Assembly (NCBI GenBank): GCA_045837725.1
Contig: JBEWZL010000179.1
Location: forward strand, 620,001 to 684,000
Direction: 5' to 3'
DNA from: Vermamoeba vermiformis
Taxonomy: Eukaryota
DNA: 64,000 nt
The notes beneath the pieces were generated by a model. The model was not told the DNA's origin and ran no database searches. It was given only the letters and a program-made list of their open reading frames with translations. Shown in pieces: positions 1,593-52,964 of the stretch. The position numbers and the translations under genes are program-made. Position 1 is the stretch's first letter; each line of letters begins with the position of its first letter.

Positions 1593-3666
1593 TTATTTCT
1601 TCTTGTAATGAAAGTTAGGCTTCTCAGCTTTCCACCACTCGCGCATGAACTCTTCGCATTCTTTACGAGTGCCGGTTGGGTGCCTGAATTGCCAATCTAA
1701 TAGCGTTGAATTTAAGTAGCCCGCAACTGGACCGGAGGTCTCTCCGAGAATGTACAACAGTTCGTGGGTCTGAAAAAGTAATTATTAATGTTGGATCCGG
1801 TTCATTCGGCCAAAAGTATCCTTACTCTAATTAATGGCTCTACTTCAAATGCGCTCATGAGGGTCTTGTTTTCCAGGTAATTCGTCAGCAAGTCAAATCT
1901 CGCCTTAATCTCCGGATCTATCGTCAAATCAAATTCGACTTCATTTTCATCTTCAAACCGTGCCTTTAACTTTGATAATGTCTGTACTATTTGCGCTATC
2001 ATATACGATTGTTGCCATTTAGCACCAAGTGACCGAATAATCCTTGCTGGAATTGCGGGATCCAGCTCGTCACCCAAAGTGTCAAAATCGCTTAGTATTG
2101 TTATCCACTCAAGTGCGTTAATCATCATATCAAACGCTGTATTGGCGCACTTATTATTGACTCGCCATTTTTGACTCATTCCGTACTTCGTGAACGGAAA
2201 TTGTTCCGGATCTGTCACTAAGAACGGCAACAAGGCAAAACTGTAGAATATGACTGATACATTGAATTGATCTTCACCTTCGGTTAAACTATAGTGATCA
2301 TATTAATGAGTATTAAAGAAGCTAATTGATATTAGTCGTACTTGTTGAAGGCGTATTTGACGCTGCTCCAAGCCATTCTGTGGTGCACTTCGCGCCACAC
2401 AGATTCGTTATCTTTAGTAAAAACAGCCTCGTGCATATGATACTTGAAGAATAGTTGGAGGCCAATAAGCGGTTTTGAAGCTAAAAATGGTATTAGATTG
2501 TATTCACCAACGTGCTCTGGTCGCAAACTTACCCTTGAGAATTTTCTCGAGCTCAATAATTTTTCGTTCAGGTGACACTTCGAGCAATAATTTCTGTATT
2601 GAATATTAGTATTGTAAGCATACATGCATATAAACGTACTATAGTCTCGGGCTTATTAAGGCGCGCAATGAGTGACTCGTGTATGGTAAAATTGGACTTG
2701 CCGGCAAATCGTGCTAAAGTGAGGTGTCAACGAGTGTCAAGTACAAAAAATCATTCAAACGTACCGGTACGAATAATTCTTAACGGGTCTTGTCCCCAAA
2801 TTATTTCTGGTGCCAGAGGCGTCCTTAATATTTTATTTTTTACGTCGTCCAAACCGCTCTTCAAAAATGTTGTTAGACCACCGTCTTTCGAACAAATTTT
2901 AAACTTACGCCGGTATAATCTTCGACTAACTTTGTCCGTATATTGTAAAATAAGGCATTGATAGTTAAATCGCGGTTAACTGCATCTGTTTCAGGTGTAC
3001 CTATCTATATAAAAGTTGGTCAAACATGGTATTTTACAGCGGATCTGGATCGAACTTACTTCGGTAGAATTTACATCCGCTCGTAGATTAACAAAGTCTA
3101 TATGAGTGTTGCATATTATCATCATCGTATTATCAAGACTTTTATGCCTGACGGGGTTTGCTGGCAGATACGAAATGCCTTGAACTTTTGTCGGATGATT
3201 TTCTTTGATTAATTGGCATAATAATGATACGGGCATAGTATCAATAACTACATCTATATCTGCACTTTCTAAACCGAGTAACTAAAGACAAAATTATCAG
3301 CTGTACATTCCCAAAAATAGAAAAACTCTTAAAATTAAAACCAATCGAGTACACCACTAAATAAAATAATAGTGCACGATAATATTATCAATTAATGAAA
3401 TAATTATTGTATTACCTTGTCTCTAACCCATCCGCCAGCAACTCTGTAAAATAATTTTGAGAAAATTTCAATAATTAAAATAATGGTCTTACAAAACATA
3501 TCCACCATTAATTAACTTATTTAAAATTTACTTACCTCGCTTGAATTTTTTTATCTGGCGACACCAGATCTAACAGCTGAACAATTGTAGAAAATATCTC
3601 CTCTTCTACGGGCAGTAGCTTGACAGTAGTGCTGTCACTATCTTTAATATTATTTGGCCTCTCCAT
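1593..3666 (-). CDS. Class II tRNA nucleotidyltransferase (CCA-adding family), probably CC-adding type, multi-exon
   Basis: Motifs RVAGGWVRDK...ESADIDVV (A), IDFVNLR, GTPETDAVNRDLTINALFYN (B), VEDYTG (C) and QDPLRIIR (D). Confidence 0.9.
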
Positions 3667-3767: not shown

Positions 3768-5685
3768 ATGCAAGGAAATGAATCTAATATAACTAACGTA
3801 TGTAATTATATAATCATTTGACGCGGTAATTTAATGCTTGGTTCGATCGCAGGCGCACATGTGCTTGATCCAAGCTGACAAGTTTCTGCAGCAGCATCAA
3901 TGGAGTGAAGCAAACAAAAAATATGTAGAGTATGTATTGGACATTTAATAGTCTAGTCTTGCAGCAAGAGAATGACAAATCCAACGCCTTTATTTAATAT
4001 AATTAGTTCCTTGCGGTAGTAAATATTTTTACACTAATATTTTCGTACAATAGAGCATCTAAAATATTTCAAGCGGCTGTATTAGCCACAGACGACCCTC
4101 AGGTAATTAATCTCCTTTATTATTCTTATTTTTTCATTTTCACGAATTTTCAACGTCTTATTGATTTGCAATACCACTTCTATTTAAATGAACTTATAAT
4201 ATTAAATATATAAATATCTTTCTTAAATCCAAATTCTGCTTTACCGAATCTTATCAATTCCGCGCCGAAATTGCAGTCTGAATTTAATCTCCAAACAGCC
4301 TCTAACATCAATATAATTATTCCTTAATAGGCCAAACGTAGTTTTGAAGCGATGGTCGTTCATTGCAACGAGAAAGCACAGCTCATTCAAAGCTATTTAA
4401 TGTCAAACTCGATCGATCTGTCAGACACTGCCAATTTTAGCGACGAAGAACCAAATTCGCGGGACGAAGATTCGCAAATATATTTAGACGACTACTATAA
4501 TAACCAATCAAACGTATTCCAACAAAGAATAGTTTTCGGTGGATCGACAATTGAAGAGGAAGTTATTGATCTTTATTTGAGGCCACTAGAGGATGCTGAT
4601 AGGGCTAAAAATAGTAAAACTGCAAAATCAGAAGAGAAAAATAGCGATTGGTGGGGTGTAGGCAAAATTTTCAGAAATTTACTCGGATCGCCCACGAACG
4701 ATACAAAAGAGCCTAAAAATAATGAGGACCTGTTATCAAGTACGACAATACCATTCGCAAATATACACTTAACTAACATATTTTTAGATCATTCGACGCT
4801 CGATACGTCATTTTATGTCATGGCTGATGAAGCTCGAAAACGGATGCTCAACAAGCACGGCAAAAATACTCCGCCGTCAACAACACCAACTGAAAATACG
4901 CAGAAAACTAATAATAGTAACACCCCTATGAGAAAGAGTAATGATAGTATTGTCATTCCTGATGAAAAGAAAACGAAACAAGATCTGCTCGAAGAATTGA
5001 AAAAGCTTCGCAAAACGGTGCAAATTTTATCACAGCAGAATGCTATTTTACTATCGGTAAGTATCACAATATAATATTAGACTCATATATCATTACTGAC
5101 ATGCTCTTATAGTCCACGACAACTCCAGTAATGCACGGGCTCATTCACGAAAATACGCAGCTCAGACGCTCAATCATAATGATGCACCACCGCTCGAAAA
5201 AGACTGTAAGCCGTAATATAACGTCCTCGCAATATACCTGGTGCCTAATTACGATTGCATAGAAAGCTGAAGGCGACGCTCAAAATCTATCTATGATTCA
5301 GGAGTCCAAAGGTGCACCTCAAACAGCCCCTGTGACACCTGTCAAAATTCAAATCAGCGCGCCTACAGAGAGCACTAAGAGACCTCACTTATCAGCCCAT
5401 AATGCACCCCATAGTATTCAACCTCAGTTTAATGACACCAAACTTAAAGAATTGGAGGAAAAAGTTGCGAAGTTGACATCCGAAATGCAGGCAAAGGTAC
5501 ACTTACTCAATCTAAACCGCTACGTATACTAATATTATTCTTAGGATGAAGAGTTGTCTAAATATAAAAAGAGGTGGAAAGTGTTAAAAACATCTGCAAA
5601 ACAACGGCAGAAATCGGCCGAACATAACGGATCGAACTTCAGTTTGACGAATGAAAGCTTCAAACGAGCTTCTAATGAACTATAA
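3768..5685 (+). CDS. MIT-domain plus C-terminal coiled-coil protein, NRBF2/Atg38-like
   Basis: Spliced N-terminus MQGNESNITNAHMCLIQADKFLQQHQWSEANKKYVEASKIFQAAVLATDDPQAKRSFEAM resembles the NRBF2 MIT domain. Coiled coils follow, then a C-terminal KKRWKVLKTSAKQRQ. Confidence 0.55.
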
Positions 5686-5855
5686 TGTATTATTTTGTTA
5701 ATATGTATATTGTTGATTGTAATATTGTTCTTATGCCTGTTTATTGTACTGTAAATAAAAACTGTTGTAGAGTGCTATGTTGTTAATCAATTTATTTACA
5801 AATAATGCACAAAAATTAAATACCGTTACTCACTTCACCAAAAAGGCAACGCCTA

Positions 5856-6449
5856 TTAATCATCCTTATAGTTTGTTGTAACGATCTTTGGCTTTTCAAA
5901 CACATCCGAGTCACGCAAAGGTAGATGTCGATCCATGAAGTGTTGTCGCCTAAATTGCCAAATTAATCAATTCTAATTCGTGCAATATGATATAACACCA
6001 AAAATGACGATATTATTCGTCCATTACCTTAGTAAACGAATGTGCCTGTCGTAATCAGCAGGATCTAGCCTCTTGTCTGTATAATAGTGTGCCTCCTTTT
6101 GACTATTGCCAGGAACTAACTCCCCGTCCTTCATAACAAATTTTCCTGTTGTTCCTACGGAAAACAAAATGTCAATAAAGCAGATCCGCGATTAATTATT
6201 AATTTCTTTTTTAAAATTACCGAAAACTTTGCCTTTGCGAGGAGCTATCATTTTCAAAAATCCTAACTTCGATTCTCCATGTTTAATTAACTCTTGAATT
6301 TTTTCAGCATCGTTCTCGCTCTTGTGATCCCTGAACTCAGATCTGAGTTGTGGCAGGGCCTCGGCTTGCTTCTTCGGGCTGAGTAATCGAACAAGCCTAT
6401 GTAAATCACGATATAAACGCAAAACTTGGCTCTTAGGTGTTGTTGCCAT
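5856..6449 (-). CDS. LYR-motif (Complex1_LYR family) protein, 3 exons
   Basis: SQVLRLYRDLHRL...LRSEFR. Downstream exons end in YKDD*. Confidence 0.8.
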
Positions 6450-7791: not shown

Positions 7792-10195
7792 ATGGATCCC
7801 ACGAGCAGTTCTTCGGACCTGTCGCGATCTCAAGCCCCGGTATTAAGCGCTAATAATAATTCCACAAATAACCCAAACGAGCAATTTATTTCACCGTCCT
7901 TGTCTATTCCAAACTTCGTTGAGCAATGTAAGTACTTACAACGGTAATAATAATAATTTCGAAAATAACGTGTAATTATTTAAAATATCGTCCTAAAATT
8001 ATTTTAGACTACAAAAATTCTACTTTTCATCACCTATCAACATGGCGAATGAAGATGCAACAAATGGCGCGACAAGCTGTTCATCTCGACGAGCAACCCT
8101 TACCCGCAAAGCCAAAGGGAGCAGGAAGCGAGAATTCATCGCAAAGCAGTGGCAGCAGTGGAAGGTCGAGCGATTTGTTTTCTTCGAGTACTAGCAGTCC
8201 TGAACAACGCAAATCCGCACCTCAAGTCAATAAGGCCGCCTTAGCAGCACAGAAGTTGCCTGTGTCTCCCGCGAAGCTTTTGCAAGAAGAAGAGCGAATC
8301 ATCTTGCACATTGACATGGTACGTATGCTTCTCACTGTTTACAAGCATTTTGGAGCATTGATCTGAAGTTCAACCGAGACGGCGACGAACGATCTGCGTC
8401 TGTGTCCTTGCTAATTGTTTTTTTTTTTCTCTCAGGATTGCTTTTACGTGAGTGTTGCTCGACGAGATAATCCTGGTCTCAATGGCTTGCCCGTCGTTAT
8501 TTGTCCATCGAAGAACATCCTGGGCACTTCAGAGATCTCCTCGTGCAGTTACGAGGCACGACAGTACGGCATCAAAGCACGCATGTACGTCAACGAGGCA
8601 CGCAAGTTGTGCCCGGATATTGTTGCGCTGCCTTGTCAATTTGAGAAGTACGAGAAAGCCAGCGAGGCATTGTACGCGGAGCTGTTCAAGTGGTGCGGTG
8701 CGAGCCGAAGAGACACGGAAGGTGTTCAGTCTGATGTGATGGAAGCTGTGAGCTGCGACGAGGCCTTCTTGGATATCACGGATTGGGGCTGGGACCGCGC
8801 TGATACCATGGCGGTAGAGCTCAGGCAAGTTTTTCAAAATCAACAACACGAAATTTTTCAGTTTCTTACCTTTTGTACAGACAAGCGGTTTTTAACGCCA
8901 CTGGCTGCCCGTGTTCTGTTGGTATAGCGAAGAATCCTGCTCTGGCGTACATGGCCAACAAACACTTCGCCAAGCCTTCGAAAGGAGCTTCGGGCGTGTA
9001 CATCTTGTATCCGGACGAGCACGACCCCGCACGCGCGGCAGAGTTCAAGTATTATCAAGCGGCTGAAGAACGAAGTATTCCTGATCAGAACACAACGGCG
9101 TTCTTGAGCAAGTTGAATTCCGTGTCAGATCTGCCTGGTGTTGGTGCTGCTCTTACTAAGAAGTTAGCGGAGCAGAGTATCGTGAAAATCATTCCCGACC
9201 TTCAAATCCAATCCCTCACAAAGCTGCAGAAGGTGCTTGGAAACAGCACGGGCATTCGACTATTCCAACTCTCGCGAGGTGTGGATCCGAGACCTTTGTG
9301 CGCAAGCAAAGAGCGCAAGAGCATCTCAACGCAGATTTCATGGGGCGTGCGTTATCAGACCGACGAACAGATCAAGGCATTTTTGGAGGATCTCTCGCGT
9401 GAGTTGAAGAAACGTCTCGAAGAGATCTCCATGCTCGCCAAGCGCGTTGCTTTACGGTTGAGGAAGCATTCACAAGGAGACAAAGAGTCCGACAAATTTA
9501 TGAATCCTGGCCAAGGGCAGAACATTTCACGCTCCGTGACCTTGCCCGAGGCGACGAGTGATGACGCGGTCATTGCCGATGCTGCATTCAAGTTGTACAA
9601 GGCGATGAAGCTGACACCAACCGAGGTTCGTGGAGCAGCCCTGGCTTGTGAACAGTTGACGAAGAAGTCGTCCAGCAAACGCCGCAACAAATCCACTAGT
9701 AACGCACCGAAGGTGAATACTTTGCTGCAATTTTTGAAGCCCAGCGCGAAGACTGAAAGCGCTGCCATCACGAGCAGTTCAAACACACTGCCAGCCCCTC
9801 CAGAAGTCAATGATTTATCGTCGTCAGAGCCGGATCTGTCGCTGTTTTTTGACGATGAAAAGTCGAGCAGTCCCGAACCCGAAGAAATTTTGCTCTTCAG
9901 CGACGACGACGAGTCTGGTCATTCAATGTCAGCCAGTAACACGACAATACCTGCACCTCCTCCCGTCGAGTTTATCTCTGCCAAGAAGCTCTTGGAGACA
10001 ACGCCAGTCCCGCCCAAACCGAAGGCTGTGCCTCCTGTTGCGAGCGCTAAAAAGAAGCCCAGTCCCGCAGCTAAAAAGCAACAGCAAAAGAAAAGAAAAG
10101 CAGACACCGAGGCAACTCAACACGACACTAATGAGCCGCCAAAAAAGAAAATGAAACAAACCACGTTGTTTCAAATGATGCCTGCCAAGAAGTGA
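7792..10195 (+). CDS. REV1: Y-family DNA polymerase, REV1-like, with an atypical N-digit and no BRCT, 4 exons
   Basis: IILHIDM|DCFYVSV, EISSCSYEARQYGI, AVSCDEAFLD, LPGVG and RKSISTQISWGVR. N-digit-like segment YYKNSTFHHLSTW. Confidence 0.85.
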
Positions 10196-49766: not shown

Positions 49767-52602
<2,836 letters not shown>

Positions 52603-52964
52603 CTCTCTTGTGTTGTTCAGGCTTTTTGCTTGTTGAAATTTTGTTTGGTGCTGCGCTGATCCAATTTTAAAACAAATCGTTCATGAATGGACCAGATCGT
52701 AAAAATTTTGTTTCCAACAAGTTTTCGTACAAAAAAAGCACAAAGAATTTCATGGACAATCCAGGAGGGAACGCTCAAAGTAGTTCAACGGGAGAATTCG
52801 ATGTAAAAGCAGGATGCTGCAGTGAAAGAAGTGCAACTCTTTCCTTTACAGATGAACTCGAGACGTACAGTAAATAGCATCTTAATTTATTCGGTCACAA
52901 ATGACAGGTGACGAGCAAAGTTGCAAAGTATTTTTGTTTCAATTGTTAGCTTTCCCTTTTAGTG

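Follow-up and report, generated by a model that had tools for sequence, protein, structure and literature searches.

Gene structure and neighbourhood

The window, i.e., the whole stretch of DNA analysed, comprises 64,000 nucleotides of Vermamoeba vermiformis (contig JBEWZL010000179.1, positions 620,001 to 684,000). A gene for a class II eukaryotic-type tRNA nucleotidyltransferase is located at 1593..3666 on the minus strand. It consists of ten exons (3666-3536, 3443-3416, 3281-3060, 3004-2909, 2858-2765, 2713-2640, 2593-2533, 2480-2342, 2288-1826 and 1769-1593) and nine GT-AG introns spanning 46-134 nt; the spliced frame of 494 codons is free of internal stops and encodes 494 amino acids. In a profile search, exon 4 matched PF01743 with an E-value of 1.5e-7. 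Intron 3 (3005..3059, minus strand; 55 nt, phase 0, GT-AG) splits the flexible loop. C102 and C292, the two paralogues in the genome, each carry a phase-0 intron placed one codon earlier when counted from the Gly that closes the loop.

A spliced neighbour gene (3768-5900, plus strand; start 3768..3935) is arranged head-to-head with this gene, and its GT-AG joint at 3797-3853 was found in RNA reads. The start codons of the two genes are ~100 bases apart, and this arrangement is kept in the orthologous locus L013, with conserved upstream gene order. Since the neighbour starts this close, an upstream targeting exon has no room; the orthologues also begin at the same Met, and such an exon was ruled out. 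No presequence was found on the window protein. Farther along the window, a frame at 8415-10195 (plus strand) presumably resembles a Y-family DNA polymerase and one at 49767-52680 (minus strand) a phosphoenolpyruvate synthase.

Splicing of the loop intron

The initial annotation had proposed splicing from a GTAAGT donor at 3059 to an acceptor at 3005. Both sites are present, and their use gives the phase-0 intron and the open 494-codon frame described above. Read-through of the intron leads to a stop, as had been claimed, by way of a frame shift which places the stop at 2993-2991 within the next exon. The junction, for which a check by RNAseq had also been proposed, is shown by orthologues and not by reads of this strain: in four RNA or probable-RNA runs, no 3059-3005 joint was among the joints listed, the reads being mostly from a relative less than 95% alike and the depth at the loop intron being ~2-fold. 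The remaining eight introns are backed by joints or loose ends in the same runs. Because reads of this strain give no loop joint, the junction rests on the orthologues.

The homologues P0001, P0006 and P0007 are uninterrupted frames of 476-494 amino acids on ~3 kb contigs and have a 7-residue loop; P0006 equals the window protein in length and is 76% identical to it. P0003, a member of the same cluster, departs from the shared frame at the donor, like an unspliced copy. At L013 (74% identical), all nine introns are matched, with a 56-nt intron at the loop site and an 8-residue loop. By sequence comparison, the short loop of the window gene was confirmed as real. The gene is expressed in near relatives, in which spliced transcripts occur.

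Loop length among homologues

The loop of the window protein, from Arg120 to Gly129, has 8 residues. A length of about 15 had been put forward as the consensus for comparison, and the alignment of homologues agrees: the mode is 15 residues (133 of 239) and 203 of the 239 have 14-19. For this alignment, 239 of 255 homologues of at least 280 residues were kept, and 16 were dropped because the motif-A anchor was missing. Loops of 11 residues or fewer were found in 34 of the 239, five of which belong to the window clade and 29 do not; since the set consists of the best matches to a short-loop query, short loops may be over-represented in it. Orthologues of the window protein in three lineages have loops of 7-8 residues, and what is left of the loop varies in sequence. 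Short loops are typical of CC-adding enzymes but prove nothing by themselves, as the 29 homologues outside the window clade have them too.

Among the short-loop homologues, P0035, P0056, P0058, P0093, P0217 and relatives form a separate eukaryotic-type clade (SH-aLRT 100) with loops of 6-7 residues, most members having intact motifs B and D. This clade is a candidate for a second CC-adding family, judging by its loops. The genes mostly lie on ~2 kb one-gene contigs, which we guess could possibly be gene-sized ciliate chromosomes. P0099 from Amoeba proteus combines a QRD motif B with a 13-residue non-consensus loop and groups with C102 and P0306 (SH-aLRT 91); it is probably an independent CC-type candidate within Tubulinea.

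Motifs of the window protein

All features of a class II eukaryotic-type enzyme were found, i.e., motifs A-E, the DxD with the third carboxylate, and the head-neck-body-tail fold. The AlphaFold model of P0006 has a mean pLDDT of 88.5, and its best structural match is the Arabidopsis CCA enzyme (9kma, E-value 1.2e-22, TM 0.75). All positions in this section refer to the minus strand. Exon 2 (3416..3443) carries an intact motif A signature. The catalytic DxD (3252..3260; Asp61 and Asp63) is likewise intact, with Asp at both columns in 239 of 239 homologues, as is the third catalytic carboxylate Asp115 (3096..3098), which would be equivalent to Asp185 of the Arabidopsis enzyme, a residue with a catalytic role (PMC12166844). 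The turn preceding the third-carboxylate strand (3138..3146) is altered, with His99 in place of Ser/Gly and Ser101 in place of His, a form seen in five of 239 homologues, all from the window clade.

The segment at 3002..3083 encodes the basic/acidic motif, in which Arg120 and Asp122 are kept, and the 8-residue loop, with intron 3 inside. In motif B (2969..2977), Asn137 replaces the first Arg of RRD; RRD is present in 226 of 239 homologues, and the replacement by Asn is confined to the five window-clade sequences. In the motif D template (2778..2792), Gln182 stands for the first acidic residue, whereas Asp183 and Arg186 are kept; this first residue is acidic in 230 of 239 homologues and Gln in eight. 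An ERxxxE signature of the CC-/CCA-adding type is encoded at 2552..2569.

Published CC-adding enzymes have QRD for RRD in motif B in some cases, and xDxxR in motif D (PMC7947759). The window protein agrees in its shortened loop, its changed motif B, and the loss of the motif D acid next to a kept Asp183 and Arg186. The changes in motifs B and D, which the initial annotation did not contain, appear as two further hallmarks in support of CC addition. Loss of the basic/acidic motif, frequent though not universal in CC-adding enzymes, was not observed, as Arg120 and Asp122 are retained; this motif is missing in the CC enzyme of S. pombe and kept in that of S. rosetta (PMC7014341). Where CC-/CCA-adding enzymes have ERxxxE, the first position is taken by a small residue in A-adding enzymes and poly(A) polymerases (PMC2910056), and the window protein differs from the latter two by its short loop and by the Glu ahead of RxxxE.

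Paralogues and search for an A-adding partner

Three tRNA nucleotidyltransferase loci were detected by a PF01743 profile search of the contigs of the Vermamoeba genome (G000). C102 encodes 524 amino acids with every motif intact and a 15-residue loop and is, judged by these features, a canonical CCA-adding enzyme; P0305 is a near-identical full-length relative (89%). C292 (L006:5501-2593, minus strand) encodes 779 amino acids with a full loop, an ERxxxE of the CC/CCA type, a presequence-like start (by eye) and a long Asn/Gln-rich stretch, and is probably the mitochondrial paralogue. Its third catalytic carboxylate is Asn, as in no other of the 239 homologues; if C292 is the mitochondrial CCA enzyme, this Asn has no explanation.

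The initial annotation had expected either a separate A-adding or a full CCA enzyme elsewhere in the genome. The latter exists with C102, and the former was not found; the search for paralogues yielded C102 and C292 and left the picture of a split CC+A system unsupported. In exon-by-exon searches of the assembly, which may be incomplete, no fourth locus was found with PF12627, NF009814, TIGR02692, NF041569 or PF01368, of which NF041569 missed even the three known loci and PF01368 (DHH) had no match at all. Three DHHA1 matches were dropped as A-adding candidates, since by eye they resemble alanyl-tRNA synthetases. On this basis, an A-adding gene is likely absent from the Vermamoeba genome. Split systems of the fission yeast and choanoflagellate type have no full CCA enzyme, whereas here C102 is present. 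As a separate observation, one of three genes labelled by eye as alanyl-tRNA synthetase-like (L106:1-1671) is divergent, whereas the other two look ordinary.

The contig C309 (L099-L104; 90,991 bases) is mitochondrion-like and contains an inverted copy of the small rRNA gene and 12 tRNA genes, either a real repeat or an assembly artefact. By eye, none of 24 tRNA genes inspected has a full encoded CCA, one tRNA-Ser gene has CC, and several genes abut or overlap. The 18S gene (L016:1501-3810) measures 2310 bases, whereas the model has 1831 positions; near L016:2170-2630 it carries an insertion of ~460-480 bases that may be a group I intron. Both diagnostic primers of V. vermiformis match this gene exactly and lie 502 bases apart, in agreement with the amplicon size in the literature (PMC5057267).

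Phylogeny and selection

In a tree of 44 rows, built without Ntr3 of Acanthamoeba, the window clade branches separately from the Ntr1-like group and its branch is long (1.3); C102 clusters with Acanthamoeba Ntr1, Balamuthia, dictyostelids and Amoeba proteus (SH-aLRT 85, not starred). Forcing the window clade together with C102 and P0305 gave a p-AU of 0.042, and a recent duplication of the window gene from C102 appears disfavoured. When forced into a wider Tubulinea-like group with P0306 and Amoeba proteus, p-AU was 0.062, i.e., a duplication at the level of Tubulinea was not rejected. Among the best 120 and best 150 matches, no deeper orthologues were found between ~66% and 49% identity. A metagenome scan yielded three loci from one close lineage, and the ESM Atlas only generic PF01743 clusters.

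Viral origin or transfer from a giant virus was examined and rejected, as none of the 78 viral homologues that were scored (80 loci were retained out of 330) carried any of five patterns of the clade. The viral contigs L019-L050 reach ~500 kb and carry eukaryotic-type enzymes, which have a full-length loop wherever the loop is readable.

Between the window gene and L013, dN is 0.155 and dS 1.43, the latter near saturation, which gives a dN/dS of 0.11 (491 codons, Nei-Gojobori); for head and neck, dN/dS is 0.087. The gene is under purifying selection and is not decaying in the Vermamoeba lineage.

Comparison with Acanthamoeba Ntr3

Acanthamoeba castellanii has two CCA-adding enzymes, Ntr1 and Ntr2, and an A-adding enzyme of bacterial origin, Ntr4; in vitro, its Ntr3 adds C74 readily, C75 poorly and never A, and it was proposed to be accumulating detrimental mutations (PMC7947759). 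Like Ntr3, the window protein is of eukaryotic type, has a loop deletion and coexists with cytosolic and mitochondrial-type paralogues. The first residue of motif D is non-acidic in both, and the Gly-Gln start of the window protein recurs in Acanthamoeba (Gln in four species, by eye), whereas A. castellanii Ntr3 has Gly-Pro. His at position 99 and Pro70 with its context are also shared, by eye. Two blocks of the body domain noticed by eye, residues 313-323 (2165..2197, minus strand) and 363-373 (2015..2047, minus strand), are common to Ntr3 and occur in none of 396 other homologues; the former is also absent from the 78 viral ones. Of six patterns shared with Ntr3, five were found in 0 of the 396 and the sixth in three, with the reservation that the patterns were picked by eye after both sequences had been seen, that the 396 contain near-duplicates, and that the Ntr3 sequences compared are cut at about 400 residues. 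The spacing from DxD to the turn is 34 residues in both proteins and 37 in C102 (by eye); a similar gap occurs in four of 19 alignment rows, hence this is weak evidence.

Ntr3, in the sequence available, differs from the window protein exactly at the diagnostic site, by a larger deletion, by the loss of the basic/acidic motif and by a kept RRD. Furthermore, Acanthamoeba has the A-adding Ntr4, whereas none was found in Vermamoeba, a member of Tubulinea. By the shared patterns, Ntr3 is absent among the best 120 and best 150 matches to P0006. On balance, the window gene is likely the Vermamoeba orthologue of Ntr3; instead of being inherited from an ancient ancestor, an Ntr3-type enzyme may have been transferred between amoebae.

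Acanthamoeba belongs to Discosea. Vermamoeba is placed in Tubulinea, and Amoebozoa divide at their deepest node into Discosea and Tevosa (PMC5850466). Ntr3-type enzymes could form an ancient third amoebozoan branch dating from this split, with a selected, partner-free C-adding job of its own, for example adding a single C to a special class of RNA, or 3'-end repair during stress or encystment, although we consider this possible rather than probable.

Predicted activity and alternative explanations

Switching of the pocket from CTP to ATP depends on the flexible loop; where the loop is missing, the pocket would remain in the CTP state. The loop is required for addition of A76, not of C74 and C75 (PMC3925840, PMC2910056, PMC12166844, bioRxiv 10.64898/2026.03.02.709036), and two eukaryotic CC enzymes regained A addition when a loop was grafted onto them (PMC7014341). 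The window enzyme should hence bind CTP, add one or two C and stop. Overall, it is best explained as an active tRNA nucleotidyltransferase that adds C or CC and is probably the Ntr3 orthologue of Vermamoeba (probability roughly 0.6); C-only activity, taken by itself, is quite probable. The enzyme would bind tRNA without a 3' end in the cytosol or nucleus, where it is placed because it has no presequence, add C74 and perhaps C75, and release the tRNA, the end of which would be completed by C102, not by a dedicated A-adder. Its likeliest value would be the re-priming of tRNAs with trimmed-back ends. Such repair priming is our best guess for the reason of its retention, with a special substrate as the main rival.

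Two explanations would remove the enzyme or its short loop. With a donor at 3037 and an acceptor at 3001, the loop would come to 14 residues; the required GT and a further AG are present, the frame is kept, and the RNA runs contain no read joint of the loop intron to settle the matter. However, at 37 nt this intron would fall below the 45-188 nt of the 24 introns modelled in the three paralogues, its extra residues are unlike the loop consensus, are not the same in L013 and displace the conserved Gly, and the short form is seen in P0001, P0006 and P0007, so that we give mis-splicing hardly any credence. A functionless duplicate, as proposed for Ntr3 (PMC7947759), would suit the long branch and the several changed motifs. 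Decay is nevertheless very improbable for a gene which is intact in three lineages at 73-76% identity, has a dN/dS of 0.11 (0.087 in head and neck) and yields spliced transcripts.

The others concern the activity. One reading takes the window enzyme as one half of a CC+A pair in which A is added by C292 or by an Ntr4-like gene that escaped detection; it draws on Ntr4 in Acanthamoeba, the odd Asn of C292 (1/239) and the exon-wise searches of a possibly incomplete assembly with NF041569 silent even on known loci. It is improbable given only three loci, no DHH match, a C292 with the CC/CCA-type ERxxxE and, unlike the window gene, a presequence-like start, and a C102 that makes a partner superfluous; the best reading of the sequences is that the window enzyme is not such a half. 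Full CCA addition despite the short loop appears equally improbable: the basic/acidic motif is kept, and many of the 29 other eukaryotic-type homologues with loops of at most 11 residues have intact motifs B and D, yet the characterised loop-deleted enzymes do not add A (PMC7947759, PMC7014341, PMC3925840, PMC2910056) and motifs B and D of the window protein also deviate. A C-specific terminal transferase outside bulk CCA synthesis, adding a single C or acting on a subset of tRNAs or a non-tRNA RNA, deserves more weight. The enzyme is redundant with C102 in bulk synthesis, yet dN/dS is 0.11; the strongest changes shared with Ntr3 fall within the body domain, which binds RNA, the turn on the primer side is altered, and Ntr3 adds mostly one C (PMC7947759). 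Even so, the protein has the fold of a tRNA enzyme with each of its four domains, the proposed substrate is purely a candidate, and this explanation is still unlikely.

Significance and comparison with known systems

No publication on a Vermamoeba tRNA nucleotidyltransferase or CC-adding enzyme was found among the papers listed by targeted literature searches outside the subscription journals, and Vermamoeba is not mentioned in the accessible part of bioRxiv 10.64898/2026.05.29.728689. Partial-activity tRNA nucleotidyltransferases are viewed as neutral splits (PMC7014341). A loop-deleted copy at a dN/dS of 0.11 beside a full CCA enzyme, in a genome in which no A-adder was found, fits neither this view nor that of degeneration, and suggests that C-only addition may have a function of its own.

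In Schizosaccharomyces (Cca1) and Salpingoeca rosetta, loop function was likewise lost in a eukaryotic CC enzyme (PMC7014341). However, the loops of these enzymes are mutated and not deleted (16 residues in P0051, with which the window protein did not group in the 44-row tree), and the enzymes are obligate halves of CC+A pairs. Bacterial CC-adding enzymes of the Aquifex aeolicus AaS type share the loop deletion and deviations in motifs B and D, but they are bacterial-type in sequence, have A-adding partners and originated independently. Dictyostelium also has several eukaryotic-type paralogues in an amoebozoan, CCA1 and CCA2, although both add full CCA and have all motifs (PMC7432833). Eukaryotic CC-adding enzymes are already known; what the window gene adds is an example from Tubulinea, with probable kinship to Ntr3, under purifying selection and with no visible A-adding partner. 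Next to Ntr3, it provides another natural example, less eroded and from an amoeba that can be cultured.
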